A stretch of 64,000 nucleotides of DNA from Escherichia phage FL38. Below the pieces are notes generated by a model that was given only the letters and a program-made list of their open reading frames with translations, was not told the DNA's origin and searched no databases. Numbering within the stretch: position 1 is the first letter of the stretch; every line of letters starts with the position of its first letter. Position numbers and translations under genes: made by a program. Shown here piece by piece: positions 12,143-61,311 of the stretch. The DNA is taken from the sequence record PP400784; one strand, given 5' to 3'.

Positions 12143-12173
12143 GGGGAAGCCTTTCGGCCTCCCCTTCTTTTTA
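12143..12173 (+). terminator. intrinsic terminator at convergence of late (+) and early (-) transcription
   Basis: GGGGAAGCC-TTTC-GGCCTCCCC hairpin then TTCTTTTTA; may act on both strands. Confidence 0.55.
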
Positions 12174-12419: not shown

Positions 12420-12763
12420 TCTGGAAACTTCCCGTAAACATTCTCTGCCAACTTACGTGCATCGCTAATAATATCTTTCATGTGATGGTCGTATTGCTTT
12501 GCCATAATAAGAATACAATCAATGAAGAATGAATAACGTCTAGAATTTACTAAAAAGTTTTTACCTAGTGAATCAAACGGATCTGGATCATCAAGTTCGA
12601 TAGATTCTCTAACTTTAGACAATTCTTTCATTACAAGGTTTACATCGTTTATAATATCTTTTGATTTATATGCGCCTTTCTTTAACAATATGGCGGTCAA
12701 TTCTGACGCAGTTTCTTGAAATTCTTTCTGATAAGCTGAGTTTACATCATCGATATTAAACAT
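12416..12763 (-). CDS. hypothetical protein (115 aa), tandem paralog A
   Basis: Starts MFNIDD, ends ENVYG; paralogous to the adjacent 12773..13105. Confidence 0.55.
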   Translation of the reverse strand: MFNIDDVNSAYQKEFQETASELTAILLKKGAYKSKDIINDVNLVMKELSKVRESIELDDPDPFDSLGKNFLVNSRRYSFFIDCILIMAKQYDHHMKDIISDARKLAENVYGKFPE

Positions 12764-12772
12764 AATCGCCTC

Positions 12773-13105
12773 TCAAATATTGCCGTAAATGTTTTCAGTC
12801 ATGGTTCTTGCTTCTTCCAGCATTTTGGTCATGCTCATGGTGTAGTTGTTATCTCGTACAGACTTAATAACGACAAGCAAGGAATCTAGGAAAACTTTAT
12901 ATACTCTCCATTTTACGCTATTGTTGAATAGTTTTATATCTTCTACTTTATCGATCAGATAACCTAAAACAGATAGCGCCTCGTTCACTTCTTCCGTTAC
13001 TTTACTGCCACTAAACCAGATGGGGTAAAGCTGGATTGACAGCGACCGTGCTGCCTCTTTCAGTTCGGTCGCCTTCCATGATTCATATTGATCAAAGTTA
13101 AACAT
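12773..13105 (-). CDS. hypothetical protein (110 aa), tandem paralog B
   Basis: Starts MFNFDQ, ends ENIYG; similar length and termini to 12416..12763. Confidence 0.55.
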   Translation of the reverse strand: MFNFDQYESWKATELKEAARSLSIQLYPIWFSGSKVTEEVNEALSVLGYLIDKVEDIKLFNNSVKWRVYKVFLDSLLVVIKSVRDNNYTMSMTKMLEEARTMTENIYGNI

Positions 13106-13117
13106 TATAGAATACCA

Positions 13118-13450
13118 TTACAGATGAAAACCTGTTACGATCACCGCATCGATCATACCGCTAGGAATAAACGGTTCGCCCTCTTTTATTTCAACTTTGA
13201 ATTGATGCCATTTCGCTAATACTTCTTCCGGTACACCCAGCGATTTGGCGTCTGCTTTAGTTTCATCCATAATCCAACTAGGCTGCATGAGAGCATAGTT
13301 TACATAGTCCATTTCTGGGGTCATGTCATCAATGTTAATATATTTGCAGTTGACGCGTTTCAGAATTTCAAATTCTTTATTGTCAACCTGTACCATGTAT
13401 AATTCAGTAGTTTCTGGAATCAGTTCCCACACAACCAGTACATTTTTCAT
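13118..13450 (-). CDS. hypothetical protein (110 aa)
   Basis: ORF in dense minus-strand array. Confidence 0.5.
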   Translation of the reverse strand: MKNVLVVWELIPETTELYMVQVDNKEFEILKRVNCKYINIDDMTPEMDYVNYALMQPSWIMDETKADAKSLGVPEEVLAKWHQFKVEIKEGEPFIPSGMIDAVIVTGFHL

Positions 13451-13458
13451 AGTTCACC

Positions 13459-13827
13459 TCACTTAACAAAGATTTTCTTTAATGCTTTCAGGATCGTTGC
13501 TTCCGGTGCTTCTTCCGGTGGAGGAAGCAATTCTACCACTTCCTCTTCCAACTCGATATAGTCTACCAGATATTCTACATAGAATGCAAGTGCTTCCATG
13601 AAATTAGATGCTACATCCGATTCACCACAAGCGCCTACATGCATTGTATAAACATCACTGCGATCAAGTTTGTGGATGCTTCCCAGATAGTTTCGGTTAT
13701 ACCAGACTTCCCACACTTTCAGCTTTCCGGTTTTGGTTGCTGTTTTATAATCGGTTTCGTAATGATGCAATTGACGTTGCAGATCATTGATAATAACACA
13801 TTTTTCGTAATTGTTTTGAATTTCCAT
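13459..13827 (-). CDS. hypothetical protein (122 aa)
   Basis: ORF in dense minus-strand array. Confidence 0.5.
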   Translation of the reverse strand: MEIQNNYEKCVIINDLQRQLHHYETDYKTATKTGKLKVWEVWYNRNYLGSIHKLDRSDVYTMHVGACGESDVASNFMEALAFYVEYLVDYIELEEEVVELLPPPEEAPEATILKALKKIFVK

Positions 13828-13837
13828 GATGTAATCC

Positions 13838-14029
13838 TCACTTATCGTTAAGAAGTTCTAAAACTTTCTGTCGTACTTTGTCAATATTAGTTGATTCAAA
13901 AACTGTACGGTATCCCCAGCTTTGACCGTATGAGCGCGAGCAATCCCCATATCCCCATTGTTCAACCTGATAGTATTCAAGGAATGGGTGCTGCCGAACT
14001 ATGATACCATCGCGATTAAAAATTACCAT
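13838..14029 (-). CDS. hypothetical protein (63 aa)
   Basis: ORF in dense minus-strand array. Confidence 0.4.
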   Translation of the reverse strand: MVIFNRDGIIVRQHPFLEYYQVEQWGYGDCSRSYGQSWGYRTVFESTNIDKVRQKVLELLNDK

Positions 14030-14052
14030 AATATAATCCTCACGTCAAAAAC

Positions 14053-14340
14053 TTATTTTCGGTTGTGGTCACGATATGTTTTAAAATATCCCTCGTACCA
14101 CGGTAAAATATCTGGATTTTTACCACTATACAGACATTTAACCATCATGTCAATAAGGCCATCTGGTGTTTGATAGTTTCCAGCTTTTATAAGCTCTTTG
14201 ATTAAAATCTCTCTGTATATGTCTTTCGGATCTTCGTAATCAACTTGTATTGTGGTTGTGGTCTCATTCAATTTGGTTTCTGGAGTATCTCGCATTGCAT
14301 CCCACCAATCTTTTGTGACCTTCATGTTATTGAATTGCAT
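14053..14340 (-). CDS. hypothetical protein (95 aa)
   Basis: ORF in dense minus-strand array. Confidence 0.5.
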   Translation of the reverse strand: MQFNNMKVTKDWWDAMRDTPETKLNETTTTIQVDYEDPKDIYREILIKELIKAGNYQTPDGLIDMMVKCLYSGKNPDILPWYEGYFKTYRDHNRK

Positions 14341-14351
14341 AATTTAACCTC

Positions 14352-15110
14352 TTACTTGCAAACGTATTGATCTACATCAATTGCGCCACCGAATGTAGGG
14401 TGACGTTTTTCAAATCGAATAGTTCCGTCGTTTGGTTCGAAAACGGAGTATTCATATAGATCTTTCTTGCCAACATTCTTATAAAACCCGCCTTTAGTCA
14501 TAACGGTTTCTTGTACGTTTGCTTTGTGTACGTTGTATTCGTCAATGTATACAAAATCAACCATCTTCCCATTTTTAATGGTTACTTTAAGATCTCCTGG
14601 CTGGTTTCCATATTTTGCATACAGTGGAGCTTCTTTAATTTTGGTGGAAATTCCATCTTTAATACTCCACTCATAACGAACGGTGCATTGATAGGTAAAA
14701 GTTTCGACCTTCGGTTCTTCCACCATTTTTTCTTCCTGTTTCGGTTGTTCTTCTTCAACCTTCGCAGAAGTCTCTGAATCGCTTTCTGACGCGGTTTCTT
14801 CTTTAGGTAATACATTCATCAAGTTTTGGATTTGAGCGTTGTATACAGCCTCCAGTGGCTGAATCTGCCCGATATTGATCATTGTATCACGAACAGTTTT
14901 ATTCCAGTTGAGTTGCTCTTGTTTAAGAGACGGATCAATCTTAACAGCCTTAACATATACTTCATGAAGTTTCGAATCCAGTGCGGAGATTGACTCATTA
15001 GCACAAATAAACTTCTCTGATTTGGTAGTGGCTTTAGCGCAATCAAAGGACGCAGCATTAGCACCGAAAGCAGTAGCGGAAAGAACGATAGCAGCGATAA
15101 TGTTTTTCAT
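14352..15110 (-). CDS. secreted protein with LprI/DUF1311-like N-terminal domain (candidate periplasmic lysozyme inhibitor)
   Basis: Signal peptide MKNIIAAIVLSATAFGANA; then SFDCAKATTKSEKFICANESISALDSKLHEVY, typical of DUF1311; Glu-rich linker; Cys-bracketed C-terminal domain. Confidence 0.55.
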   Translation of the reverse strand: MKNIIAAIVLSATAFGANAASFDCAKATTKSEKFICANESISALDSKLHEVYVKAVKIDPSLKQEQLNWNKTVRDTMINIGQIQPLEAVYNAQIQNLMNVLPKEETASESDSETSAKVEEEQPKQEEKMVEEPKVETFTYQCTVRYEWSIKDGISTKIKEAPLYAKYGNQPGDLKVTIKNGKMVDFVYIDEYNVHKANVQETVMTKGGFYKNVGKKDLYEYSVFEPNDGTIRFEKRHPTFGGAIDVDQYVCK

Positions 15111-15138
15111 AATATATTCCTCAATGTTTTGTCTTGAT

Positions 15139-15173
15139 GGGAGTATCTTACTACTCCCTTAATCCGGTGTCAA
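15139..15173 (-). promoter_or_regulatory. early promoter with inverted repeat (type II): -35 TTGACA, GGGAGTA/TACTCCC arms flanking -10 TAAGAT
   Basis: Minus strand reads TTGACA-17 nt-TAAGAT with a 7-bp palindrome around the -10; upstream of 14352..15110. Confidence 0.5.
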
Positions 15174-15179
15174 CTATTT

Positions 15180-15335
15180 TTAAATTTCTTCTACAGTAAA
15201 GTCTTCAATGTTATTGTGCTCGGAGAACGTTGCCAGACCAGCATTCCATGCATCATCCTCAGAGAAGAATACACCGTAACGTTCATATCCTTTAGCGCCT
15301 TCAAATTTAACCATTAATTTGTGAGTATGTTTCAT
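15180..15335 (-). CDS. hypothetical protein (51 aa; start trimmed to internal ATG)
   Basis: Track ORF 15180..15398 begins inside the promoter palindrome; internal ATG MKHTHK has SD GGAGAATCAAA. Confidence 0.45.
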   Translation of the reverse strand: MKHTHKLMVKFEGAKGYERYGVFFSEDDAWNAGLATFSEHNNIEDFTVEEI

Positions 15336-15366
15336 TTTGATTCTCCTTCGTTGTCTTGATGAGTTC

Positions 15367-15396
15367 ATTGTAGGGGATCGGCGATCCCCTGTCAAC
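15367..15396 (-). promoter_or_regulatory. early promoter with palindromic spacer (type I): GTTGACA-GGGGATCGCCGATCCCC-TACAAT
   Basis: Perfect 17-nt palindrome fills the -35/-10 spacer exactly. Confidence 0.6.
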
Positions 15397-15405
15397 AACT
15401 ATTTT

Positions 15406-15618
15406 TTAATTTTTACCCGCTCGTGCATTAATACGCATTTTCTGAATAGCCATGATCTGGCTTACTGCTTCTTCTTTACGTTCTTGCGTGATAACGTGAC
15501 CAGATTCCGCAAACTCTCCCGCAACTTCTTCTACGATCTCGCGAACTTGAGAACGTCCAAAGATGCGGTTTCCTTCGTAGCTCATAAACTCGGTTACTAC
15601 TTGCTCGATAGATTTCAT
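15406..15618 (-). CDS. hypothetical protein (70 aa)
   Basis: ORF with SD; preceded by promoter/palindrome element. Confidence 0.5.
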   Translation of the reverse strand: MKSIEQVVTEFMSYEGNRIFGRSQVREIVEEVAGEFAESGHVITQERKEEAVSQIMAIQKMRINARAGKN

Positions 15619-15642
15619 GTGATTCTCCTTTCGTTTCGGTGT

Positions 15643-15678
15643 GGGAGTATGTTAATACTCCCATTTCTTTACGTCAAC
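15643..15678 (-). promoter_or_regulatory. early promoter with inverted repeat (type II): TTGACG-17 nt-TAACAT inside GGGAGTAT/ATACTCCC
   Basis: Seen on minus strand upstream of 15406..15618. Confidence 0.5.
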
Positions 15679-15684
15679 CAGTTT

Positions 15685-15927
15685 TTAGAAATTTTTCGCT
15701 TCTTCTTCGGTCATCATCACCGCGCATTCGTGCATAACTTTGAAAACCGGATCAATCATATCGAATGCTTCGCGGGACAGTTTACGAGAAGCGATTTTGA
15801 TTGCTTCTACGTCTTCTACTACAGGAACAAAAACAGTTTTCAGTTCATCGAGAACGGCAGCTTCTTTTTCATTCAGGAAGATACCAGCGTCATACAGTGC
15901 AACTTCGATAACATTAACTTTAACCAT
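15685..15927 (-). CDS. hypothetical protein (80 aa)
   Basis: ORF in dense minus-strand array. Confidence 0.5.
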   Translation of the reverse strand: MVKVNVIEVALYDAGIFLNEKEAAVLDELKTVFVPVVEDVEAIKIASRKLSREAFDMIDPVFKVMHECAVMMTEEEAKNF

Positions 15928-15966
15928 TTTAATTCCTCCAGTTCGTTTAGGTATGGGAGTATAATA

Positions 15967-16191
15967 CTACCGATGACCTTTGGCGTCAACTGCTTTTTTA
16001 TTATTTTCGTGAAAATTTTTCGTCGCCTCATGTGCTTTTCGCTGGGCTTCTTGTTGTGCTTGCTGGCGTGCTGCCTCTTGTGAAGCCATAACGGAAGCAT
16101 TTGCAGCAGTTACAGCCGCTACCATCGCTGCGGTATTAGCATTTACAGTACATGCACTAGCCAGCAAAGCAATTGCAATCATTTTCTTCAT
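15967..16191 (-). CDS. small secreted/lipoprotein-like protein (74 aa)
   Basis: Signal peptide MKKMIAIALLASAC with possible lipobox, Ala/Gln-rich. Confidence 0.5.
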   Translation of the reverse strand: MKKMIAIALLASACTVNANTAAMVAAVTAANASVMASQEAARQQAQQEAQRKAHEATKNFHENNKKAVDAKGHR

Positions 16192-16358
16192 AGTTTCCCC
16201 TTTAGGTTATCTTCGACCTTCACCCATTCCGCGTATTCTTGCGCGGCTACTTTCGGATTTAGTCCGTCTTCGTACATTGCTTCAAGTAATGCTTCGTCGG
16301 TGGGCTTATACCCTAGATAAGCCTCCACCTGATTTTTCCAAATTTTATACCAGTTCAT
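16188..16358 (-). CDS. hypothetical protein (start uncertain; internal ATG MNWYKIW chosen)
   Basis: Track ORF 16188..16427 overlaps the upstream gene by 65 nt; the internal ATG removes the overlap. Confidence 0.35.
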   Translation of the reverse strand: MNWYKIWKNQVEAYLGYKPTDEALLEAMYEDGLNPKVAAQEYAEWVKVEDNLKGKL

Positions 16359-16362
16359 ATTA

Positions 16363-16635
16363 TCACCAGTCAAGAGCGCGTGTCTCTGCGTCTTCCCATG
16401 CTTGATCCATAACAGCCTTGAAAACATATTCTAAAGTATCATCTTTAGAGAATCCGAAGACCTTAGACGGAATATCTTCAATTGCTACTCCCGCGACTTC
16501 TGCATTACGCGCTTGGCAATAATGCAACTCTAAGTTATCGAGATAGCGACCGCCTAATTTCTCCATATCATCCCAGCATTTCCAGTAACCTACTTTATTT
16601 GCAATCGCTAACACCTTGCTGTTTTCGTTGTTCAT
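16363..16635 (-). CDS. hypothetical protein (90 aa; start trimmed to MNNENSK)
   Basis: SD AAAGGAGAATCAAAG before the internal ATG; track N-terminal extension reads through the leader. Confidence 0.5.
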   Translation of the reverse strand: MNNENSKVLAIANKVGYWKCWDDMEKLGGRYLDNLELHYCQARNAEVAGVAIEDIPSKVFGFSKDDTLEYVFKAVMDQAWEDAETRALDW

Positions 16636-16703
16636 CTTTGATTCTCCTTTTGTTTGGTATGTGTGTATTATGCAATGATGGATTTGTGAAGTCAACAACT
16701 TTT

Positions 16704-16736
16704 TAAAATAAAAAAGCCGACCACACGGATCGGCTT
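16704..16736 (-). terminator. intrinsic terminator after 16746..17141
   Basis: Minus strand AAGCCGATCCGTGTGGTCGGCTT then TTTTTATTTT; near-identical to the plus-strand hairpin at 6623. Confidence 0.6.
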
Positions 16737-16745
16737 AATAATCAG

Positions 16746-17141
16746 TTACTTACTAAATTTCTTTTTGGCTTCGTCTACCGCATGAGATGCCAGTACCGCA
16801 GCCGCATGTGCACTTTTATCTGTGTTGCAGAGAACGCCCAGATAAACATCACGCCAAAGTTTAATCATCTCGTAGATCATATCAATATCATTTTCTTGTT
16901 TGTTGGCGATGCTATTCGTCGTTATCTGGTAAGATAACGGCTTGATCTGTACTGGTTCCGCCATCGGGCTAATCGGTTTCGGATCAGTCATAATAGGTGC
17001 TGTTGTGGGTGGTGTTTTCCATACGTCATTATTCCACGGTTTAATCGTTGTATCGTAAAGTTTATAAGGATTTTTGTCTGGATTAACCATCCAGGCATGA
17101 TGAGTACCCAAACCATTTGAAGTGATGCGTCGTTCAGTCAT
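16746..17141 (-). CDS. hypothetical protein (131 aa)
   Basis: ORF followed by terminator. Confidence 0.5.
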   Translation of the reverse strand: MTERRITSNGLGTHHAWMVNPDKNPYKLYDTTIKPWNNDVWKTPPTTAPIMTDPKPISPMAEPVQIKPLSYQITTNSIANKQENDIDMIYEMIKLWRDVYLGVLCNTDKSAHAAAVLASHAVDEAKKKFSK

Positions 17142-17343
17142 ACTTTCCCTCCAAAAATTCTTTCATCAAATAGTCTATCGTTGCTCTGTGTTCTGGTGTG
17201 TTTGTTATCTCTGCTAACTTATTCAGAGATTCAATAGTGATCCGGTTGGATTCTTCCAGTGTTTCAACGACAATTGGAACAATCTTTTTATTGTTGTACA
17301 CAAATGCAATATAACCGCCTTCTGGATATTCTTTCATAATCAA
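17134..17343 (-). CDS. hypothetical protein (69 aa)
   Basis: Overlapping start/stop with neighbours. Confidence 0.45.
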   Translation of the reverse strand: MIMKEYPEGGYIAFVYNNKKIVPIVVETLEESNRITIESLNKLAEITNTPEHRATIDYLMKEFLEGKYD

Positions 17344-18701
17344 CCCTTCTTAAGTTCTTTAAGATCTTTCTTATATTCCTTCATTGCGGTCGTCTTTGTC
17401 CAATACTCATATTCACTATGATGTTTATCGGCATCTTTGACCAGTCGATCATACTCTTCTTGAGTAACGCTATACAATGGCATAGAAACTAGCTTATCGG
17501 CGTATGGACGCAGTTTTTCATGTCCATTGATGGATTGCATTACCTCGGCCTTTTTCTTGCCCTGTAGCTCGATTTCGCCCTTAATTACGCGGTCGATAAA
17601 TTCAGCTTTAGCCATTGCATAATTGTATGCTTCCAGTGTTTCCGCTTGCATCAATTCAATGCGTTTATCGACATACCCTAATCGGATTTCGACGAATCGA
17701 CGGATCAGATCGCTCGCTTTCTCGAATACTTCTACTAAACCACGTTCATTAACCACTACGATATTCTGGGCTACTAACTGTGTTAGTTTAAAATCCTTCA
17801 TGATTTGCTCATGTCGAGCGGATTCATCTTCGCTTTTGAAATAATCGCGTTTCAGTGTTACTTCAAATCTGAATCCATCCTTAGAGCAACGGTCATTATA
17901 TGAGACAATCAGATCTTTTTCTTCCAGTGCATCCAGTACCGCTACATATTCTTCACGGTCGAACTTATAAGGAACTTCTGATATTGTCAGTTTAGTCTTG
18001 CCGTTTAGTTCATATGTACCCTCAAGAATCACACCATCGCGATCATCTCGCGGGATAACTTTACCCGTGAATTTCGGGAATTGAACATTAGGTTCTTTAT
18101 CCAGTTTTCCGGCAAGTGCTAGCTCTGTGCATTCAATGAGGCTTTCCAGTGAATGCGGTAAAATGTCAGTTTTATACCCTGAAGCAATACCACTAATACC
18201 ATTAGCCAATACCATTGGCACAACTGGCAAGTAGAACGCTGGCGGGATGTGTTCCAGATCTTCGTGCTTAGGTGCGCAATTCATATCTTTATAGATTTTA
18301 AAGAAGTTTTCATGCACACGAGCAAAGATATAACGTGCCGCTCCTGCTTTCTGGACTAAACGCGATCCGAAGTTACCTTGACCGTCAAGCAGTGGAGTAT
18401 TATTGCTCCATGTATTCGCCATGAGTGATCCGGCTTCTACGGCATTAGTTTCGCCGTGGTGATACCCCAACTCAGCGACACCAGATCCAATATCTGCCAT
18501 CTTACGGAATTTCTTACGGTCGCCTTTACTCTTTTGCAAAGCACATTCCATAACAAAGCGTTGCACTGGTTTAAGCCCATCCACTAATTGAGGAATCCCG
18601 CGTTCCTCGGCAGAATAGATCGCATATTCCTTAGCTTCATTATGTACAATGCTTTCAAGGCTGCGGTAAGTAACTGATTTATTCATCTTCACCTCATACA
18701 C
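17340..18701 (-). CDS. 52: DNA topoisomerase II medium subunit (GyrA-like)
   Basis: 453 aa; GLKPVQRFVM GyrA-type N-terminal motif; T4 gp52 is 442 aa. Confidence 0.85.
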   Translation of the reverse strand: MYEVKMNKSVTYRSLESIVHNEAKEYAIYSAEERGIPQLVDGLKPVQRFVMECALQKSKGDRKKFRKMADIGSGVAELGYHHGETNAVEAGSLMANTWSNNTPLLDGQGNFGSRLVQKAGAARYIFARVHENFFKIYKDMNCAPKHEDLEHIPPAFYLPVVPMVLANGISGIASGYKTDILPHSLESLIECTELALAGKLDKEPNVQFPKFTGKVIPRDDRDGVILEGTYELNGKTKLTISEVPYKFDREEYVAVLDALEEKDLIVSYNDRCSKDGFRFEVTLKRDYFKSEDESARHEQIMKDFKLTQLVAQNIVVVNERGLVEVFEKASDLIRRFVEIRLGYVDKRIELMQAETLEAYNYAMAKAEFIDRVIKGEIELQGKKKAEVMQSINGHEKLRPYADKLVSMPLYSVTQEEYDRLVKDADKHHSEYEYWTKTTAMKEYKKDLKELKKG

Positions 18702-19056
18702 GCTTACAAATCACATTCTTTACTTTATCAGATTTATCAGCCCAATCCAATAGCCATTTTAACGGAAGGATTGACACAATAAACGGGGCAGCAATCAAAG
18801 CAAACATGATACACCTGATAATCAGGAAAACGCAAGTGACAAAACTAGCGATAGTGATCCCGACAAAACAAAATACCATAGAAAACAGAGTAATGATATA
18901 TAAAGGCCAGAATACCCACTCCCGCATCTTAACGCCTTTGTATTCTCTGAATTGCTTAAAATCTACAAACAACTCTCGGATAGACGCGTACAGGACCGAA
19001 AAATCATCTTTCATTGCTCTGAATGAGCAATCTTCTATTTTAGAATGACCTAGCAT
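18694..19056 (-). CDS. hypothetical membrane protein (120 aa, 2-3 TM helices)
   Basis: Long hydrophobic segments in the translation. Confidence 0.5.
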   Translation of the reverse strand: MLGHSKIEDCSFRAMKDDFSVLYASIRELFVDFKQFREYKGVKMREWVFWPLYIITLFSMVFCFVGITIASFVTCVFLIIRCIMFALIAAPFIVSILPLKWLLDWADKSDKVKNVICKRV

Positions 19057-19397: not shown

Positions 19398-19724
19398 TTA
19401 TTGTTCTACAGTATAACCGTTGTTTTCAAGCCATGCAATAACAATCTTTTCGCCAATTTCATCGAGCATTTCATCAGCGCCATATTCTTTAATGAAAGTC
19501 GATGGATCATTATTGCTTACTACGTGCTGGATCACAACATGTTCAGGAATTGCGTCTAGTAGTTCGCTATGATCATACTCATTAACGATATCTTCAACAC
19601 TAACATTATTAACCAAATCAACATCATCCATAGTCACAGTAACGCGACCGGACGGACGCAATGAATATTGGCTACTTTCAACTTCAACATGTGCACTTTC
19701 GCAAGTAACTTTCATATCAACCAT
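19398..19724 (-). CDS. hypothetical acidic protein (108 aa)
   Basis: ORF. Confidence 0.5.
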   Translation of the reverse strand: MVDMKVTCESAHVEVESSQYSLRPSGRVTVTMDDVDLVNNVSVEDIVNEYDHSELLDAIPEHVVIQHVVSNNDPSTFIKEYGADEMLDEIGEKIVIAWLENNGYTVEQ

Positions 19725-19738: not shown

Positions 19739-20740
19739 TTAGTAATGGCTAAAACCTTCGGTTACATCTTCAACCACATAGTAACGATGACAGCGCATTT
19801 TGGCATTCGCATAATCTTTCGGGATACTTACAACGTGACGCGGATCAACTTTACATTTAATGATTCGGCCTCGTCCACCGCCATAGTGCGGAATATAGTG
19901 TTTAGCTGCAACGTGGAGGCCATTAGAGCAAGTGCGATCATCATCTGGGTCCACGTCTTTACGCTTCATTTTAACCGTGCGACCTGGGCTATTATCAAAC
20001 GTATGCGTAAAGAAATCTTTATAATCAACATCAACACGTTTCCATGCATAGAAACAACCATCTTCCACGATCTCAATGTCGTTGTGCTCTAAGAAGTCAA
20101 ATAGACGATCTACGGCCTTACGGCTAGGGTTTTTCTTGCACTTCTCAAAGAAGTTCAGATAGTGCGTATATGGCTTATTCTCTTTAATCGACTCCACAAC
20201 TCGACGAGTCAGATTATTATCAAGAACAATATTATGATAATACACAATACCATTTTCGATACGGAAAGCGCCGTGATAATATACTTCAACCGCTTTCTTA
20301 ATGTCAATCAGCGTAATAGCTTTGATGAAATCATTATGTTTAATCGCTTCCAGTGCTTCATTAAAGTTAACATGCGATGGATCAGCAGTATAAACAATGT
20401 CACCACATGTAATAGTAATAAACTTAGTTGAGGCTATTGCTACGATTTTTGAGGAAGTAGTCACGGGCTTTTTTGCGCGTTCACCGCCTTTTCCTTTACT
20501 GGTTTTACGGCGTGCTTTACGTTTTTCTAGTGCCTTGCGACCTTCCGCTACTGCGTCTTTCTGAATCAGTAATACACGGGAGGCAGTACGACGAGATACC
20601 CCAAATGCTGACGCAAGTGCTTCGCGGGTAGTAAACTTACCTTCGCCCCACTGTTTAGCCAGTTTGATTTGTTTCGCAGAATCCAGGCATTGAACGTTAC
20701 GGTCAGAGCCGGTGATTTTTGCTTTAGTCATAGTATTCAT
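19739..20740 (-). CDS. rIIB: rIIB protein
   Basis: 333 aa; SRLFDFLxxNDIEIxEDGxFYAWK, TFDNSPG.VKM, HPR.VVSIP.DY..AKMR and VVEDVTE match T4 rIIB. Confidence 0.88.
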   Translation of the reverse strand: MNTMTKAKITGSDRNVQCLDSAKQIKLAKQWGEGKFTTREALASAFGVSRRTASRVLLIQKDAVAEGRKALEKRKARRKTSKGKGGERAKKPVTTSSKIVAIASTKFITITCGDIVYTADPSHVNFNEALEAIKHNDFIKAITLIDIKKAVEVYYHGAFRIENGIVYYHNIVLDNNLTRRVVESIKENKPYTHYLNFFEKCKKNPSRKAVDRLFDFLEHNDIEIVEDGCFYAWKRVDVDYKDFFTHTFDNSPGRTVKMKRKDVDPDDDRTCSNGLHVAAKHYIPHYGGGRGRIIKCKVDPRHVVSIPKDYANAKMRCHRYYVVEDVTEGFSHY

Positions 20741-30604: not shown

Positions 30605-31129
30605 TTAGTAGCCGCGTTCTTGACGGGCGAAGTTTTCAGCATTTTTCAGATAGTACAGAATAAAGAGTTCTTGAGCGTCAATACCCAGCGGGATCATCTT
30701 TGACAGAATGAAGTGGATCGCGTCCACAAATTCAAATTTCACTTCAAGCTGATCTTCCGGTGACAGTTCAGAGAATTTACGCGCTCGCGCTTCTCCGTGG
30801 TTCTTTTTCCACATTTTCCAGATTGCACTTGCATCTTTACCATTGGACATTCCACCCAGCGATGTGTAAAGCTCTCGTGTTTCGTCTGCGATAGCGTCAT
30901 CCATCCGTTGCATCCAATCCAGCATTTCACCGCAAGTCTCTAGCTTAGTTGGATTTGGGACCCAATCAAATTTTTCGGATAATGCAACCTGCAAACCAGT
31001 TTGCATTTCGAGCATCACCTGAAACGGATCTTTACCTTCTGCAATAGCGTGATGATATGCGGCGATAGCCGCGTTAATATCTTTTTCGTTAACCAGACCA
31101 GCACAAGAATTAAATTCTGACATATTCAC
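30605..31129 (-). CDS. 56: dCTP pyrophosphatase-like (MazG-type) protein
   Basis: 174 aa (T4 gp56 is 171 aa); acidic MazG-like helices; adjacent to primase gene. Confidence 0.6.
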   Translation of the reverse strand: MNMSEFNSCAGLVNEKDINAAIAAYHHAIAEGKDPFQVMLEMQTGLQVALSEKFDWVPNPTKLETCGEMLDWMQRMDDAIADETRELYTSLGGMSNGKDASAIWKMWKKNHGEARARKFSELSPEDQLEVKFEFVDAIHFILSKMIPLGIDAQELFILYYLKNAENFARQERGY

Positions 31130-35575: not shown

Positions 35576-36646
35576 TTATGCTAACATATCTTCGATTTCT
35601 TTGTCAACTGCTTCGTCGCTGATCACTTGCCCCAGCTTATAATGATCGTTGATTGCTTCGTTAAACTTATCGTTTGTCAGAAGTGGTTTCCAGAACTCAA
35701 TGCTATTGGTTTCTTTAGCACGGAACTTGCGTTCTTCGGTTTCCATCTCTCCGGTCTCGGTATTTAGGATTGAACGGGAATACCAGCCGTTTGACGGTTT
35801 CACTACCCAGCCTAACTCTACAGCCAATTCCAGCAAGCCGGAATAAGGATCGATGCCACCGCTAAATGTTACGCTAATCGGGAACTTCGATTTTTCTTTA
35901 ACGGTTCGTGATTTTTCCGCATTCAGGATAAAATCATAACCAGTAATTTCGGTTCCTTCTTTCTGCTGACGACGACCAATAATGAAAACTTCATTGGCTG
36001 AATACATCGCGCCCGTACCGCCGGACATAACGGTCTTACTAAACATTTCTTGCGTTTCGTAAGTGTGGTTAATAGCGATGCACGGGATATCATTCATAGT
36101 CAGATACGGCGTAACCATACGGAACAAGCCTTTAAGTGCTTTCGCTCGCGTCATATCCTGTGCGGATTTCTCATTAATCGCGTCTTCAACTTCTTTTTTA
36201 CTTGCTAAGTTACCGATTGAGTCAATAAAGATGATCACTTTATCTTCACGGGTAATTTGCTCAAGCTGGTTCATGATTTCAAATTTAAGTTCTTCGATGT
36301 TCTTGATTGGAACATGCACCACGCGATCAGGATCTACACCCATAGATTCAAGATAAGCGGGTGTAATACCGAACTCAGAATCAAAGAACAAACACGCCGC
36401 ATCAGGATTCTGTTTCATGTATGCACTAACACAAGTTAATCCCATGTTTGATTTAAAGTGCTTAGACGGACCAGCAAAGAAAATCAGACCAGATTGAAAG
36501 CCTTTTTTAAGATCACCTGAAAACGCAATATTCAGCATCGGGATCTTAGTGCGAGTATTTGTTTTTTCGTTAAAGAAGCTGGATTTAGACAGTACCGCAG
36601 TAGTTTTCAGGGTAGAGTTCTTTTTCAGTTTTTCCAGTACAGACAT
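35576..36646 (-). CDS. uvsX: UvsX recombinase (RecA-like)
   Basis: 356 aa; Walker A FFAGPSKHFKS as in T4 UvsX. Confidence 0.9.
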   Translation of the reverse strand: MSVLEKLKKNSTLKTTAVLSKSSFFNEKTNTRTKIPMLNIAFSGDLKKGFQSGLIFFAGPSKHFKSNMGLTCVSAYMKQNPDAACLFFDSEFGITPAYLESMGVDPDRVVHVPIKNIEELKFEIMNQLEQITREDKVIIFIDSIGNLASKKEVEDAINEKSAQDMTRAKALKGLFRMVTPYLTMNDIPCIAINHTYETQEMFSKTVMSGGTGAMYSANEVFIIGRRQQKEGTEITGYDFILNAEKSRTVKEKSKFPISVTFSGGIDPYSGLLELAVELGWVVKPSNGWYSRSILNTETGEMETEERKFRAKETNSIEFWKPLLTNDKFNEAINDHYKLGQVISDEAVDKEIEDMLA

Positions 36647-36657
36647 TATTAATACCT

Positions 36658-36885
36658 CTATTCAGTTAATCCGTAATACTTTAATTGCTTCATTGTTATT
36701 CGATCTTTGTAGTGCTCTTGAATTAACTTTTTCATCGCATCAACATCGATCGTCACAAATACTTCGTTGCTGTGATTTCCGTGAACTTTCTTGAAATGCT
36801 CTATGCCTTCCTCACGTTCACGTTTAATCTTTTCAATTTCTCTCATAGTATATTTCTCACGTTGGCGGGTATCGTCACCCAACAC
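36658..36885 (-). CDS. hypothetical protein (75 aa)
   Basis: ORF between 43 and uvsX. Confidence 0.5.
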   Translation of the reverse strand: MLGDDTRQREKYTMREIEKIKREREEGIEHFKKVHGNHSNEVFVTIDVDAMKKLIQEHYKDRITMKQLKYYGLTE

Positions 36886-36907
36886 CCGCCATTATACACA
36901 CTTTATC

Positions 36908-39616
36908 TTAAATGTCAAACAGGTCTGTAAGAGATGCCACTTTTTCATATTGCAGCTTTGCAGCCGTGGTAATGTTCTCCAGTGGTTTGACGAAAGTCTT
37001 ATTAAACAACAAAGGCCAGTCTAACCACTTTAACACCTCTGATTCAATTTCTGGAGGAATACGAGTACCGGACAACCAACCAAAACAGATTTCTCCAAAC
37101 GGATTTCGATCTTTCAGCGGTACAATCATAACCTTCTCGCCTTCACGAATCGGATCTAGTCCGAATTTTCGAGCATTACGATTATAACACAATACACTCT
37201 TAACCGCATACGGACAACCCTTAATCGGATACCCGTTTGAATCGCTGTATTTCTGTAGGTTGTTTGCAGATGATACCGCAGCAACATCAAGATAGTCAAG
37301 TTTTCTAAATTCTTGCTCAAAAATACCGTAGTATTCCTGCAATGACTCTTCACCTTCCTGCAACATACGGCGAATACATTCTTTCAGTGATTTCTGACAT
37401 GCTTTAGGGGTGGAGCTACGTTGCGTTTCCAAGCCCATGATTTTTAGCTTAGGTTCAGCAAAGCGCGTTCCTTCCATATCCCAAACATTAAGAGCATAAC
37501 GCTTTTTACCAGTCCAGAATCCACCGATACCCGCAGATTTCAATGGAGGACCAGCAATTGCCTCACGGTCCATAAACATCAAGTGCTCATAGTTGTTCAT
37601 GTACTCGCATAACTCGCGATATCCCTTGTCGATAATAGGTTCCATTCGATGTTTACCGAAATTATCAAGGAAGTCAACAAGTTTTTCGGTATCGTCGAAA
37701 CGGTCTTCCCCGCCAACCTTATCAACAACATTGTTAACCAGCACATAAACGGAGTCAGTATCACAATAACGAACATATGCAAAATCGGTTGTTCCACAAA
37801 GCTCGTTTAAGTATTCGTTAATCTTACGCTCAATCCACTGAATTGCAAGCTGACCAAACAAGGTGATCGCACTAGCGTTACGGAGATCATAAAAACGGAA
37901 TTTAGGATTCCCCAACGCACCATAAAGGGAGTTGATCAAAACTTTACGAGAAAGCTGGTTTGTATTGCACAAGATCGACTCGTCTTTACATTCTTCCAGC
38001 AATTTCTCTAAGGCATCTTTACTTAATTCAGAAAGCATCGATTTAAACGCTTCATCAAAGTCGTGACGCACTTCAACGCTATAGTTAATGGTTCCTCCAT
38101 AAACATGATTTTCATCGTGTAGAATCGCTTTACAGAGTTCAGCATTGCGATCACATGCCAACATCATGTTTTTGTACTGCTTACGCTGATCGAATACCTT
38201 TTTAATCTCAATCGGTACGATACCGTGAATATCTTTTCTATACATCCATCCGTTAGGCGAGCAAGAATACTCATCACTCGGACGTGGTGCAGTTTTATTG
38301 ATATACTCGTGCATCGGTGCAGCATCAAAAGATCCAGCGATTGTTTCAGGCGAAATATTAACCTGTCGAATAATAGATGGGTACAGACTTGTTAAGTCAA
38401 AGCTCATCATCCAACGGTAAGCATTCGGCACAGGTTCTTTTACGAATGCGCCTGGATACGTCTGCTTAGGCTGTATCTTATTTTCCGGTACTACTTTACC
38501 CTCAGCTTTCAGAGATCCGAAGATAATAGCATCCCACACTTTCATCGGGTTATAAACATGGTTAAATTTAATCTTTGCATAGAAACATAGACTATACACC
38601 AGATCGATAAATCCACGCTTTTTATCAATCGCCAGAACACGATCAACGTCGCCGATGTTATAATCGATGTAAAGTTGATGGTTGTCATCACGCAATTTCT
38701 TTAACGGACCATCATAATCAACCTTACCGATTCCTGTCTCATATTCAGCAACATAATCTAATGCATATGTTGGTTGAGTCGTAAAGCTAAATTTCTTGTA
38801 CAGGTCAATATAATCAAGGCTTTCGATCCCCATGATCGTAAATGCTTCACGCTCGTTGCCAAAATCATCCTGTGAGATTCGGGATTTAATCTTACCGCAC
38901 GGGCTTAGACGGTTAGCGGTTCTACTTCCGAACTTATTACTGATACGTTTAATGATATATGGAATATCGAATGTTTCTGTGTTCCAGCCAGTGAAACCAA
39001 CGGGTCGGTTTTCCTCAAAGAATCGGATGTATTCTAACAGCAATTCATCTTCTGTGTCATAGACGTTATAAACAACGCGCTCTACAATATCAGGTCGAAG
39101 AATAGACTTGCTAGATTCCCAGATTTCACCGTTTTTTCCTTTCAAATCAAATACAAAGAAACGATCATGTACGGAATCATAATGCGTAATTGCATCGATA
39201 GGATATTTCGCTTCTTCTGGTTTAGGAAATTCTGGGGCAGTGACCTCGATATCAACCCATGCTACACGGATTTTATTTCGGTCATATCGAATCTCTCCTT
39301 TATACGTATCAGACAGATAGGAGATGATAAAATCATCCATCCCTAGCGCCTCTTGCCCCATTTCTCCCATCTTTTTACGCCATTTGTTGGCCTCGTTCAT
39401 AGAGGGGAATTTTTTAGCAATGCAAGGCTTGCCATAGATATCTTTATAATTCGTAACCATACCAGGCGCGGCATGATGAAATAAAGTTGGCGTATATTCA
39501 ACGTAACGCTCTTGTTCTTGTCCAGCATCATCAATATAACGCTCGTAGATCTTATCACCTACTCGCTCACATGACAGAAAATACATAATATAAACTCCTT
39601 CACTTACGAAAGACAC
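36908..39616 (-). CDS. 43: DNA polymerase (family B)
   Basis: 902 aa; YCDTDS polymerase motif; exonuclease motifs; T4 gp43 is 898 aa. Confidence 0.95.
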   Translation of the reverse strand: MSFVSEGVYIMYFLSCERVGDKIYERYIDDAGQEQERYVEYTPTLFHHAAPGMVTNYKDIYGKPCIAKKFPSMNEANKWRKKMGEMGQEALGMDDFIISYLSDTYKGEIRYDRNKIRVAWVDIEVTAPEFPKPEEAKYPIDAITHYDSVHDRFFVFDLKGKNGEIWESSKSILRPDIVERVVYNVYDTEDELLLEYIRFFEENRPVGFTGWNTETFDIPYIIKRISNKFGSRTANRLSPCGKIKSRISQDDFGNEREAFTIMGIESLDYIDLYKKFSFTTQPTYALDYVAEYETGIGKVDYDGPLKKLRDDNHQLYIDYNIGDVDRVLAIDKKRGFIDLVYSLCFYAKIKFNHVYNPMKVWDAIIFGSLKAEGKVVPENKIQPKQTYPGAFVKEPVPNAYRWMMSFDLTSLYPSIIRQVNISPETIAGSFDAAPMHEYINKTAPRPSDEYSCSPNGWMYRKDIHGIVPIEIKKVFDQRKQYKNMMLACDRNAELCKAILHDENHVYGGTINYSVEVRHDFDEAFKSMLSELSKDALEKLLEECKDESILCNTNQLSRKVLINSLYGALGNPKFRFYDLRNASAITLFGQLAIQWIERKINEYLNELCGTTDFAYVRYCDTDSVYVLVNNVVDKVGGEDRFDDTEKLVDFLDNFGKHRMEPIIDKGYRELCEYMNNYEHLMFMDREAIAGPPLKSAGIGGFWTGKKRYALNVWDMEGTRFAEPKLKIMGLETQRSSTPKACQKSLKECIRRMLQEGEESLQEYYGIFEQEFRKLDYLDVAAVSSANNLQKYSDSNGYPIKGCPYAVKSVLCYNRNARKFGLDPIREGEKVMIVPLKDRNPFGEICFGWLSGTRIPPEIESEVLKWLDWPLLFNKTFVKPLENITTAAKLQYEKVASLTDLFDI

Positions 39617-39668
39617 TCATTATAGGGGAATCGACTTAGTTTGTCAATACCCCTATCCCATCAGTATC

Positions 39669-46436: not shown

Positions 46437-46466
46437 AGTATAACGGGGATTTCTCCCCGCGTCAAC
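46437..46466 (-). promoter_or_regulatory. early promoter with palindromic spacer (type I): TTGACG-CGGGGAGAAATCCCCG-TATACT
   Basis: Spacer is an inverted repeat; overlaps the gp47 stop. Confidence 0.55.
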
Positions 46467-47491
46467 TAACTTTTTGCGCTATTTACCTCGGCTAAAAGTT
46501 CATCAGAAATACGCTTGACCGCCGCAAGTTCTTCCGGTTCTAGGTTTTGTTCTTCCAGATATTCATATACCATCTGAATAGTGCTTTTAACTTCAATAAC
46601 ACCTGTTTCCTGTGATGCGCTACTCTCCAGTTTATGGACCACTTTTAGCTTGTGTACAACGGCCTCTAACGCGCTTTCTAACTTAGTTAACCCATTATCA
46701 GCAACCGTTGCAATAAGACGCACACTAAGCCCCTTAAAGCGTTCTACATCGATTTTATCATCTGACGGGTAAGTGATACGCACATGATAAGTTTTGTCAT
46801 TCTGGATAAACTCTTTTTTGTGTGTATCGGTATCGAATACCCAAAACCCACGCGGATCGTTTTCGTCACCCGCCGTTAGTGTGTATGGTGTACCGATATA
46901 CGTTACATTACCGCCATCGCTGATAGTATGAAAATGACCGGAAAACACTTCACGGTATTTCTTGAGGAAGTCCGCGCTATAACCTTCGGATTTTAGCCCT
47001 TTATAGAAATAGTAACCGGACAATTCCCAATGGCCTACACAATATTCGCTGAATGAGTTTTGAATAAACTCTAAAATCTCTGATTTATTGTCATCACAAA
47101 ACCACGGGAACAGATCAAATGATACACCATCAAAGGTAACTGTTTCCGGTTTATCGATAACCTTAATGCAATCATACTGGCTTAACACTTCACGCGGTGC
47201 GTTAGGCTGGATCTTGTTTCGTTTAAACATATCATGGTTCCCGACCGTGATATAACAAGTAATTCCAGCCTCTTCCAGTAATGGGATGACCTTAGTACGG
47301 TTAAATTTCATGGTTTCATGGGTAATTGCTTTTCGGCAATCAAACCAATCCCCTGTTTGAATCCATGTCTTAATATTATGCTCTTTGGAGTATTCAACCG
47401 CCTTCTTGATGGTATCAAGAATATACTCATGCACCCACGGATCATCGCCACCGATACCAGTATGCAGATCACCTAAAAGCAAAATTTTCAT
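46466..47491 (-). CDS. 47: recombination endonuclease subunit (SbcD/Mre11-like)
   Basis: 341 aa; MKILLLGDLH phosphoesterase motif; T4 gp47 is 339 aa. Confidence 0.9.
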   Translation of the reverse strand: MKILLLGDLHTGIGGDDPWVHEYILDTIKKAVEYSKEHNIKTWIQTGDWFDCRKAITHETMKFNRTKVIPLLEEAGITCYITVGNHDMFKRNKIQPNAPREVLSQYDCIKVIDKPETVTFDGVSFDLFPWFCDDNKSEILEFIQNSFSEYCVGHWELSGYYFYKGLKSEGYSADFLKKYREVFSGHFHTISDGGNVTYIGTPYTLTAGDENDPRGFWVFDTDTHKKEFIQNDKTYHVRITYPSDDKIDVERFKGLSVRLIATVADNGLTKLESALEAVVHKLKVVHKLESSASQETGVIEVKSTIQMVYEYLEEQNLEPEELAAVKRISDELLAEVNSAKS

Positions 47492-47581
47492 AGTCTCTTC
47501 CTCTCTTCGTTTTCGATGCTCTCACTATATCACAGAAAAATAAAAAGGGAAACCCCTTTCAGAGTCTCCCTTATAAAGCCA

Positions 47582-47869
47582 TTACAGCATACTTAATACC
47601 GTTTGCCGTGTACTAATCCACATAGCAGAAAGCAGTTCTGGCGTGTGTGGCTGTTTGTAGATATCACGTAACTTTCCGATAGCGTAGATATACGCATCAC
47701 GGTTATCATCGATGATAGCTTGTTCAGCCCACCGCTTAAGGCGTGCAATCTCTCGCGAGTTCTTACGCAAGATCTTTTCCGCTTTCTTAGCGGCTTTAGC
47801 CTCTAGTTCTGCTTGTACTTTGTCTACTTCATTCACTGCAATCTGGTCATGCTGTTCATTGCAAGTCAT
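47582..47869 (-). CDS. hypothetical protein (95 aa)
   Basis: ORF. Confidence 0.5.
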   Translation of the reverse strand: MTCNEQHDQIAVNEVDKVQAELEAKAAKKAEKILRKNSREIARLKRWAEQAIIDDNRDAYIYAIGKLRDIYKQPHTPELLSAMWISTRQTVLSML

Positions 47870-59710: not shown

Positions 59711-60199
59711 CTATCTTAATCTTTGTATGAATTGTTTCTTATACTTCTTCGTGATTTCTTCTCGTGTATCAGCGTCGCAGTAATCGAAACCTTCTGCGTC
59801 CATAATATCAACCATCTCCGCGCGTGTCAAGCGTGAAAATCGTTTTACTTTATCAACAGCATATTGAGGATGTAAATGATTGTTGGTGTAGTCTCCTTTG
59901 ATGTAATTAACATAGTTTGTAGCCCAAACAACGAAATCAGCACCTAAAGCACCAACACCAAACCGTTTAAAGTCTCCGGTCAACGATCCTTCTAGGCGGT
60001 TGCAACACGAATGAAGCAATCCCCTTACGCGGCCTTGCCCTTTCCCATCTAGATCGTGGTCGTGGTCAAGATGGTTTTTGCTCATATCCTCAAAAAGTGG
60101 CAATTGACAAAGGGGGCAAATGCCCCCCTGTTTTTCGAATAGTTCTTGTTTGTACTCTTTAGCACTCTTAGCAGTCAGTAACATAAATTCACCCTCCAA
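59711..60199 (-). CDS. 49: endonuclease VII (Holliday junction resolvase)
   Basis: 162 aa; C.LCQ zinc site, HLDHDH...G..RGLL..CN..EG and YIK.DYT.N..HP match T4 gp49. Confidence 0.88.
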   Translation of the reverse strand: MEGEFMLLTAKSAKEYKQELFEKQGGICPLCQLPLFEDMSKNHLDHDHDLDGKGQGRVRGLLHSCCNRLEGSLTGDFKRFGVGALGADFVVWATNYVNYIKGDYTNNHLHPQYAVDKVKRFSRLTRAEMVDIMDAEGFDYCDADTREEITKKYKKQFIQRLR

Positions 60200-60208: not shown

Positions 60209-60502
60209 TTAACCATTAATCTTGTTTTTGACTACAAAGGATCGGAACTCATCAAAGCCACCGATATAATCACCATCATAGAAAATCTGCGGCATGGTGG
60301 CAATAACTTCTACCCCTGCGCGATCCTGAATATCGGCAATGATAGAATCAATCTTTACCGGACGACCGTTTTCGTCCACACCATCATTAACCGGAATGTA
60401 GATGTAAGGGATCTTACGCGATTCACAAAGGCGCTTTGCATTCTGGCAATACTTACAGTTGTAACCTTCAAAACCAAAAATTTCTACCATGTTATACCTC
60501 AA
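60209..60502 (-). CDS. nrdC: thioredoxin/glutaredoxin
   Basis: 97 aa; C.YCQNAKRL and TMPQIF.DG..IGGFD match T4 NrdC. Confidence 0.8.
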   Translation of the reverse strand: MRYNMVEIFGFEGYNCKYCQNAKRLCESRKIPYIYIPVNDGVDENGRPVKIDSIIADIQDRAGVEVIATMPQIFYDGDYIGGFDEFRSFVVKNKING

Positions 60503-61311
60503 TCTACGTTAGTTACATAAACTTCTTGTGTATCAGAAGACTTGCCACCTGAACGATCTAGGCAATAGGTCTTATTCAACAGGACGCAGTTTAAATCATT
60601 CCGCTTGATAAAGTCAAGAAGATGATCATTTACCTTTCCCTTATGATGTGTGACATTACTGATACCAAACTGAAAACCACGCGCCATAATAGATTCTACC
60701 CACTGATAGAATTTAATCTCTTCCTCGTCACTCCAGAACTTATTATATTCCGCAGAAGTGATAAGGTACGGCGGGTCCAAATAAACGAAATCACCCGGCA
60801 AGATCTCGATCTCGTCATAACGACCAGACGTAAAACTGATTCGACCGTCTTTGTTTTCTTCCTTAAAATTCAGGACACGCTCTACCGCGTTTTCGTTAAA
60901 AGTCCGGCGACCAAAATTAGCATTAAATTCGCCCTTCCGGTTATGACGGTTAATGTTGCTAAAACTATGCTGAATCAACACAAACAGCGATAGCGGATCT
61001 GGATTCTCGTTATACTTCTTGCGGAATGCCATATAAGAATCTTTATCATCACGAGACAAACCATTTTCGGCAATAATCCTCTTGATCATAAAAACCGGAT
61101 CAGGACACTCATCAATGGCCTTGTAAGCGTCAATTAAGCGGTGATCATAGTCATTAGCCAGCACATCCCCTTCGACGTACAGAGACACGCTCAAGCCACC
61201 ACAAAAGGCATCGACAAAGCGGTTATAGTGCTTAGGGAAATACTTACTAACACCAGGCAATAACTTTTCCTTATTGCCCGTATAGGGAATTAAACCTAAT
61301 GCTTTCTTCAT
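60499..61311 (-). CDS. dam: DNA adenine methyltransferase (N6-A, GATC-type Dam)
   Basis: 270 aa; FVDAFCGGLSVSL and DFVYLDPPYLIT...YNKFWS match T4 Dam. Confidence 0.88.
   Translation of the reverse strand: MKKALGLIPYTGNKEKLLPGVSKYFPKHYNRFVDAFCGGLSVSLYVEGDVLANDYDHRLIDAYKAIDECPDPVFMIKRIIAENGLSRDDKDSYMAFRKKYNENPDPLSLFVLIQHSFSNINRHNRKGEFNANFGRRTFNENAVERVLNFKEENKDGRISFTSGRYDEIEILPGDFVYLDPPYLITSAEYNKFWSDEEEIKFYQWVESIMARGFQFGISNVTHHKGKVNDHLLDFIKRNDLNCVLLNKTYCLDRSGGKSSDTQEVYVTNVD

Follow-up and report, generated by a model that had tools for sequence, protein, structure and literature searches.

The stretch of DNA analysed here, called the window throughout, comprises 64,000 nucleotides of Escherichia phage FL38 (sequence record PP400784), and the question is whether this T4 relative builds its DNA with ordinary cytosine. 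At the locus from which the question arose, uvsX is followed by gene 43, which encodes the DNA polymerase (Table 1). The original prediction held that the T4 genes for beta-glucosyltransferase (b-gt) and dCMP hydroxymethylase (42) and the gene imm are missing between them, and that denB and ndd are missing between genes 52 and rIIB, where only three small open reading frames (ORFs) were noticed. Both absences are borne out. The uvsX-43 spacer measures 261 bp (36647-36907) and holds a single ORF; the corresponding interval in the T4 record measures 3,635 bp and holds segA, b-gt, 42, imm and imm.1. The 52-rIIB interval measures 1,052 bp with exactly three ORFs, against 2,760 bp in T4 with 52.1, ac, stp, ndd, ndd.1-6, denB and denB.1. 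A third synteny gap, absent from the original prediction, is the slot of the alpha-glucosyltransferase gene (a-gt), which is reduced to 90 bp between gene 47 and a homologue of a-gt.4. The T4 order is 47, 47.1, a-gt, mobB, a-gt.2, a-gt.3, a-gt.4, a-gt.5, 55; tblastn found homologues of a-gt.4 and a-gt.5 in the window and none of a-gt. The three slots have thus collapsed to 261, 1,052 and 90 bp, and the first two are filled by small, lineage-specific ORFs.

Table 1. Features at the three compact junctions and in their surroundings (positions of the window)
Feature	Position	Strand	Remarks
Gene 52, topoisomerase II medium subunit	17340-18686	-	50% identical to T4 gp52; 98.9% to Phi1
Gap ORF a, 120 aa, membrane protein	18694-19056	-	phrog_16033; Phi1 ORF270
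Gap ORF b, 97 aa	19059-19352	-	phrog_14759; Phi1 ORF271
Gap ORF c, 108 aa, very acidic	19398-19724	-	phrog_14049
rIIB	19739-20740 (or 19739-20731)	-	44% identical to T4 RIIB; 97.9% to Phi1
Gene 56 homologue, dCTPase/dUTPase family, full length	30605-31123	-	49% identical to T4 gp56; Pfam dUTPase_2; phrog_173
uvsX, RecA-like recombinase, 356 aa	35576-36646	-	64% identical to T4 UvsX; 99.7% to Phi1 UvsX
Sole ORF of the uvsX-43 gap, 62 aa	36658-36846	-	phrog_12120 matches 1-62/62, E=1.7e-41; Phi1 ORF025
Sigma-70 consensus promoter, TTGACA-16-TATAAT	36891-36918	-	perfect, 12/12 match; overlaps gene 43 end
Gene 43, DNA polymerase, 892 aa, uninterrupted	36908-39586	-	55% identical to T4 gp43 over 903 aa; 99.2% to Phi1 gp43
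Empty a-gt slot	47492-47581		spacer between gene 47 (46466-47491) and a-gt.4 homologue (47582-47869)
Gene 49, endonuclease VII	59711-60184	-	98.7% identical to Phi1 gp49
nrdC	60209-60490		between gene 49 and dam
Dam, D12-class N6-adenine DNA methyltransferase	60499-61311	-	47% identical to T4 Dam; Pfam MethyltransfD12 E=1e-29; DPPY motif

The missing genes were sought in the window, the complete Phi1 genome and the complete, Illumina-based SAP genome, with 39 T4 proteins as tblastn queries. While the controls uvsX, 43, 52, rIIB, regA and 40 were clearly matched, the window gave nothing better than E=0.36 for b-gt, a-gt, 42, imm, imm.1, alc, denB, ndd, ac, stp, arn, asiA and motA. For gp42 the best value in the window was E=4.0, which is no match; for the alpha- and beta-glucosyltransferases the best tblastn values were 0.5-0.8, in unrelated genes, the T6-type beta-alpha-gt (TAGT) not being among the queries. 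Apart from 42, none of these genes has a significant match in the complete Phi1 and SAP genomes either; alc, denB and arn are among those without one in all three sequences. The T4 genes that are kept include 56 (49% identity), dam (47%), denA (49-50%), cd (56%), a-gt.4 and a-gt.5.

In Phi1 and SAP the gp42 query matches td only (E=0.01 and 0.006, respectively), and td is the only gene of the thymidylate synthase family there, so that no dCMP hydroxymethylase, the finding that would have contradicted the original prediction, lies elsewhere in these complete relatives. Td of Phi1 and SAP is a genuine thymidylate synthase and not a gp42-type enzyme. The Krischvirus protein (406 aa) matches E. 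coli ThyA at E=1e-68, carries the catalytic Cys and has, in the motif GLPFNVASY, the Asn that specifies dUMP; dCMP hydroxymethylases have Asp at this position. Its length derives from an insertion of ~140 aa between the positions equivalent to ThyA residues 82 and 110, and its gene maps outside the window (Phi1 segment L002, 16878-18098, minus strand). Within the window, a motif scan found Dam to be the only DNA methyltransferase motif, and the unnamed ORFs of at least 105 aa contain no Pfam modification enzyme other than Dam.

The same arrangement recurs throughout one genus. A 12-kb query around the uvsX-43 locus matched 58 Krischvirus genomes at 95-99% identity over at least 80% of its length, with kaaroe, ECD7, Phi1 and RB49 at 98.0-98.6% nucleotide identity and the best matches at 98.6%; over the 4 kb of uvsX and gene 43, FL15 is 99.8% and kaaroe 99.7% identical, and the whole range across the 58 records is 95-99.8%. 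The compact uvsX-43 and 52-rIIB junctions are common to all of them. The uvsX-43 span is ~4,040 bp (4,039-4,041), or 5,154-5,155 or 4,505 bp where gene 43 carries an insert, and the 52-rIIB span, determined with a 3,501-bp query, is 3,489-3,531 bp. The inserts are a side feature of gene 43, which is split by 1.1 kb annotated as an HNH or NUMOD3 endonuclease in ECD7, kvi, MIZ4/5, JK32 and others and carries an insert of 0.46 kb in JSE; gene 43 of the window has no insert. When 35 annotated Phi1 proteins were mapped onto the window, 34 aligned at full length with 97-100% identity. The gene run is rnh, 34 ... t, 52, rIIB, rIIA, 60+39, dda, 56, 61, 41, 40, uvsX, 43 and, beyond it, 45, 46, 47, 55, nrdD, 49, nrdC, dam. 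RB49, Phi1, JSE, kaaroe and FL15 share with the window the gene order at all three junctions, the small ORFs (Phi1 ORF025 and ORF270-272), the fused 60+39 form of the topoisomerase large subunit, the set of T4 genes kept and lost and the lack of tRNA genes. ARAGORN found no tRNA gene in the 64-kb window, and the genus is reported to have none (PMC7552041). Differences from these relatives are allelic only, namely the distal part of gp37 and HNH inserts; SAP and TB34 differ in having HNH genes on either side of gene 61, which the window lacks. The one Phi1 protein that did not map in full is gp37, the distal long tail fibre (8377-11166, plus strand, 929 aa), which is 68% identical to its Phi1 counterpart through its first ~700 aa and cannot be aligned thereafter, a case of host-range mosaicism within a genome otherwise 97-100% identical.

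The published gene pattern of Krischvirus is presence of dCTPase and denA and absence of hydroxymethylcytosine (hmC) synthase, denB, ndd and alc (PMC12115623 Table 4). The window contains 56, and tblastn found no homologue of 42, denB, ndd or alc in it; the denA and alc loci fall outside the window, and in Phi1 and SAP denA is present and alc absent. Collectively, the window is part of a Krischvirus, that is RB49-type, genome, from a T4 relative that lacks the cytosine-substitution module of T4 and very probably builds its DNA with ordinary cytosine. Three further genes, denB (endonuclease IV), alc and arn, are safe or useful only for a phage without ordinary cytosine, and they are absent along with 42, a-gt and b-gt. 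The loss of imm and ndd, by contrast, is not mechanistically tied to hmC.

This absence pattern and its reading have been known for the RB49 group for many years. Petrov et al. (2010) reported RB49-type genomes to lack gene 42, denB and alc and to keep 56 and denA (PMC2993671 Table 4, where denB and alc co-occur with gene 42), confined a-gt to the T-evens and b-gt to T4 and CC31, and concluded that RB49-type genomes probably have no major dCMP modification (PMC2993671). The same table makes clear that the presence of gene 56 alone is not diagnostic of hmC phages. Direct evidence is available for two relatives. Yaung et al. (2014) found RB49 virion DNA to be cut by HpaII and NheI, which are sensitive to cytosine modification, and to contain neither hmC nor glucosyl-hmC (PMC4041780), and TB34 DNA is canonical by high-performance liquid chromatography-mass spectrometry (HPLC-MS; PMC13390438).

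An independent line of evidence comes from the composition of the sequence itself. If the cytosines are unprotected, restriction is expected to shape the sequence, and a purge of restriction sites is accordingly seen. Expectations for hexamers were taken from maximal-order Markov models and those for restriction enzyme sites from third-order Markov simulations, with the hexamer test covering the 64-kb window, 164 kb of Phi1 and 92 kb of T4. In the window, 14 of the 52 testable 6-bp palindromes have zero copies, compared with 2 of 1,822 non-palindromic hexamer pairs. For Phi1 the corresponding counts are 16 of 60 and 0 of 1,979, and for T4 they are 0 of 52 and 0 of 1,778. Palindromes missing from the window include GAATTC (16.5 expected), AAGCTT (16.7), GGATCC (14.7) and TCCGGA (27.1); sites for EcoKI, EcoRI, HindIII, BamHI, PstI, KpnI, NcoI and others have zero copies, and that for Eco57I (CTGAAG) occurs twice against 34 expected. 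AT-only palindromes are not depleted. In Phi1 the observed and expected counts are 0 and 16.1 for EcoKI, 9 and 31.4 for EcoBI, 1 and 9.1 for EcoAI, 70 and 179 for CCWGG, 1 and 82.5 for Eco57I (CTGAAG), 0 and 55.7 for EcoRI, and 1 and 21.9 for EcoO109I; the window follows the same trends for these seven sites. In T4, six of the seven are near or above expectation and EcoBI is mildly depleted (12 observed, 20.5 expected). Sites for EcoP1I, EcoP15I and BREX-type systems show no depletion. Among the sites still present in the window are 122 copies of CCGG, 9 of GCTAGC, 15 of GATATC (EcoRV) and 93 of AGACC (EcoP1I). GATC behaves differently: it is depleted in T4 (100 observed against 312 expected, a ratio of 0.32) and at expectation in the window (1.02) and Phi1 (1.07), and both lineages, T4 included, encode Dam.

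The purge supports, independently of gene content, the view that the DNA would be unmodified and accessible to restriction. That phages avoid restriction sites is a well-known general phenomenon, reportedly treated by Sharp in 1986, Rocha in 2001 and Rusinov in 2018. For RB49 or Krischvirus, no earlier description of site avoidance was found in the searchable literature, the older subscription papers (Monod 1997, Desplats 2002) being beyond reach. The original prediction of an unmodified-cytosine phage like the RB49 group is therefore upheld by genus identity, gene absence, the restriction-site purge and the data on relatives, which together support canonical cytosine as the likely state of the virion DNA. 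Its expectation of anti-restriction functions among the unassigned ORFs is partly answered, in that the sequence shows the loss of sites as the chief strategy. One of its arguments did not hold: Dam was taken as evidence of non-hmC DNA, but T4 itself has Dam.

Several observations weigh against this reading. The gp56 'dCTPase' and DenA are kept in a phage with cytosine DNA, which is unexplained and has also been remarked upon in PMC8056088. About 100 kb of this phage lies outside the 64-kb window, and absence there is inferred from relatives. A second methyltransferase that Krischvirus genomes carry outside the window (Phi1 ORF143) makes base methylation beyond GATC possible. Most directly, the Krischvirus phage SAP has been reported to contain 5-hydroxymethyldeoxycytidine (5-hmdC) and alpha-gentiobiosyl-methyldeoxycytidine (alpha-gentiobiosyl-mdC) with no identifiable pathway (PMC13390438). 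Given that report, gene content alone is not absolute proof of cytosine chemistry.

The SAP report raises the question of whether members of Krischvirus, perhaps this phage among them, can use enzymes unrelated to gp42 and the alpha- and beta-glucosyltransferases to put glycosylated derivatives of hmC in the place of cytosine. By HPLC-MS, about one third of the SAP cytosine was 5-hmdC and about two thirds alpha-gentiobiosyl-mdC, the phage was sensitive to BrxU, and no hmC synthase or glycosyltransferase homologue was found in its genome (PMC13390438), an absence confirmed here by tblastn on complete SAP. However, seven Tequatrovirus phages from the same collection have exactly the modification profile of SAP (PMC13390438), RB49 and TB34 are experimentally unmodified (PMC4041780, PMC13390438), and a massive purge of sites is difficult to square with DNA that is hypermodified and restriction-proof. 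Further, SAP and TB34, which are 99.96% identical (PMC13390438), with SAP ~98% identical to the window, differ in an error-like manner and by no gene. We therefore regard such replacement as very unlikely.

The comparison of SAP with TB34 covered 135 kb, with SAP complete and TB34 represented to 82%. All 11 substitutions are transitions, each at the middle position of CCNGG, a clustering that is unexplained; 30 of the 36 indel columns fall in homopolymers; and one 83-bp tandem duplication separates the two genomes (SAP ~39.62-39.70 kb). The TB34 annotation has many core genes split. Nanopore errors at Dcm sites in SAP were considered as the source of the differences and rejected: SAP was sequenced by Illumina, and at 9 of the 11 substituted positions Phi1 has the base found in SAP. 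The pattern suggests sequencing errors, most of them on the side of the TB34 record, and the two consensus genomes are effectively identical. The published 'modified Krischvirus' SAP thus shows no genomic difference from its unmodified twin. A narrower proposal is that RB49-type phages, this one included, might make T6-like hydroxymethyl- and gentiobiosyl-cytosine with enzymes that bear no detectable resemblance to gp42 or to any known DNA glycosyltransferase and whose activity differs between stocks (on in SAP, off in TB34 and RB49), with the consensus genome unchanged. In that case the chemistry of the DNA could not be read from the 'missing' genes; we consider the proposal slightly less credible still, and a mixed or mislabelled SAP stock would be the likelier explanation.

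An alternative with as little in its favour as wholesale replacement is that the cytosines are not hydroxymethylated but partly methylated (5-methylcytosine or N4-methylcytosine) by a phage enzyme. A 'DNA-cytosine methyltransferase' cluster has been described in the RB49 group (PMC8056088), the TB34 annotation contains a 'hypothetical C-5 cytosine DNA methylase', and Phi1 ORF143 encodes a methyltransferase that has the NPPF motif and matches the Pfam families MTS, Eco57I and N6_Mtase. Yet Phi1 ORF189, the putative C-5 methylase, matches no Pfam family and shows neither a PCQ nor an ENV motif; with no C5-methyltransferase motifs, the label was rejected. NPPF is an amino-methyltransferase motif, and ORF143 has no assigned target; its gene is outside the window, between baseplate genes 8 and 9 (Phi1 segment L003, 32207-33046, plus strand). 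HPLC-MS detected no modified base in TB34 (PMC13390438), and C-containing restriction sites are purged, not protected. The least probable reading, that gene 42 and glucosyltransferase genes lie in the ~100 kb outside the window, draws on the 64-kb limit, on the moving cassettes in plastic regions of T4-like genomes (PMC2839356) and on the relocation of Dam itself, and is countered by the lack of such genes in complete Phi1 and SAP and in every Krischvirus of two pan-genome tables (PMC12115623, PMC2993671), by the absence of denB and alc, two genes that accompany gene 42, and by the purge within the window.

Phi1 also encodes, outside the window, a 172-aa protein (ORF187; Phi1 segment L004, 35448-35966, minus strand) with a GmrSD_N (DUF262) domain (E=4e-20). 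In Type IV enzymes directed against glucosyl-hmC DNA this domain forms the N-terminal part, and in a phage with cytosine DNA ORF187 might conceivably target T-even competitors. The 83-bp duplication of SAP lies just downstream of its gene.

The four small ORFs of the compact junctions belong to small PHROG families without assigned function, and none has a Pfam or PDB match. The ORF after uvsX had been given as 75 aa. A single ORF is indeed present, but that length requires a start at GTG 36885; the 62-aa reading from ATG 36846 is likelier, 62 aa being the length of the PHROG profile and of ORF025 as annotated in Phi1. Its product is soluble, with an isoelectric point (pI) of 8.0 and no transmembrane segment. 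Diverged Imm was considered for it and rejected, as the product is soluble, lacks a transmembrane segment and is not matched by T4 Imm in tblastn. The locus itself was placed correctly at 35576-39616, except that 39616 is an upstream GTG of the longest ORF; gene 43 starts at the ATG at 39586 according to the Phi1 annotation and the T4 alignment. The promoter at the end of gene 43 (Table 1), at whose position the RB49 and GEC-3S records annotate -35/-10 signals, is placed to drive the 62-aa ORF and uvsX and is predicted to be an early promoter. A second perfect 12/12 sigma-70 consensus promoter lies upstream of gene 43 (39619-39647, minus strand). Both resemble early-promoter cassettes (PeSLs), which have been proposed as mediators of gene gain and loss in Phi1 and RB49 (PMC2839356).

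Among the three ORFs between 52 and rIIB, ORF a has a hydrophobic stretch at about residues 46-104, with a maximum of 2.66 in a 19-residue Kyte-Doolittle window. Diverged ndd, denB, ac, stp or arn were rejected as identities for all three by tblastn with the T4 proteins, PHROG profiles and comparison with T4 Arn. ORF c has a pI of 4.1, with 23 Asp or Glu against 5 Lys or Arg and a net charge of about -18. It is a candidate DNA-mimic anti-restriction protein, like Ocr or Arn in acidity, with no similarity to T4 Arn. Its homologues, 80-99% identical, are all close relatives within the lineage, and its AlphaFold2 model is unusable (mean pLDDT 48).

The surroundings of the junctions have been rearranged as well. 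Gene 56 directly abuts gene 61, leaving empty the slot that dam occupies between them in T4; dam has been relocated. The original prediction placed it next to gene 49, which is right as to the neighbourhood, but it is two genes off, with nrdC in between. In the t-52 interval (12171-17343, minus strand), the T4 asiA-arn-motA block is replaced by ~20 small lineage-specific ORFs, and tblastn found no homologue of asiA or motA in the window, Phi1 or SAP. To our knowledge the RB49 group lacks T4-type middle-mode transcription, which this absence fits.

With ordinary cytosine as the preferred reading, a coherent picture can be proposed. The polymerase gp43 would draw directly on dCTP. Alongside Cd and Td, the gp56 homologue would serve dUTP clearance and dTMP supply and not the exclusion of dCTP from DNA; it may be mainly a dUTPase, or a modest dCTPase that feeds Cd and Td so as to raise dTTP for a genome of 40% GC. 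Loss of denB and alc would be a precondition for a cytosine genome. Protection from host restriction would come mainly from lost recognition sites and GATC methylation, possibly assisted by small proteins such as the acidic ORF c.

Comparison with known systems places this state in context. T4 (Tequatrovirus, with glucosyl-hmC) shares the core order 52, rIIB, rIIA, 39, dexA, dda, 56, 61, 41, 40, uvsX and then 43, regA, 62, 44, 45, 46, 47, 55, nrdD, 49, at protein identities of 33-65%. In contrast to T4, the phage of the window lacks 42, a-gt, b-gt, alc, denB, ndd, imm, imm.1, arn, asiA, motA, ac and stp and carries dam elsewhere, and its lineage shows extreme site avoidance where T4 shows none. 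The T4 mutants that make dC-containing DNA (42-, 56-, denB-, alc-; T4 genetics per PMC12115623) resemble it in that 42, denB and alc are naturally missing here. However, these mutants need to be 56-, while 56 is kept here, and the state of the window is natural and genus-wide, not engineered. RB43, a Pseudotevenvirus that is likewise capable of generalised transduction, has 56 and denA and no hmC synthase, denB or alc (PMC12115623 Table 4); it belongs to another genus and keeps ndd, a comparison made through the published table and not through sequence.

For the biology of the genus, cytosine DNA in a T4-like phage means exposure to Type I-III restriction and Cas9, as already recognised for these phages, and insensitivity to modification-dependent (Type IV) enzymes. 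Because host DNA is not degraded through denB and ndd, generalised transduction is possible; RB49 is an established generalised transducer, and this property matters for the choice of therapeutic phages (PMC12115623). What is added here is an account, at the level of the sequence, of how such a phage copes with restriction, namely by eliminating the sites for many enzymes, among them the E. coli enzymes EcoKI, EcoBI, EcoAI, EcoRI, EcoRII, Eco57I and EcoO109I.

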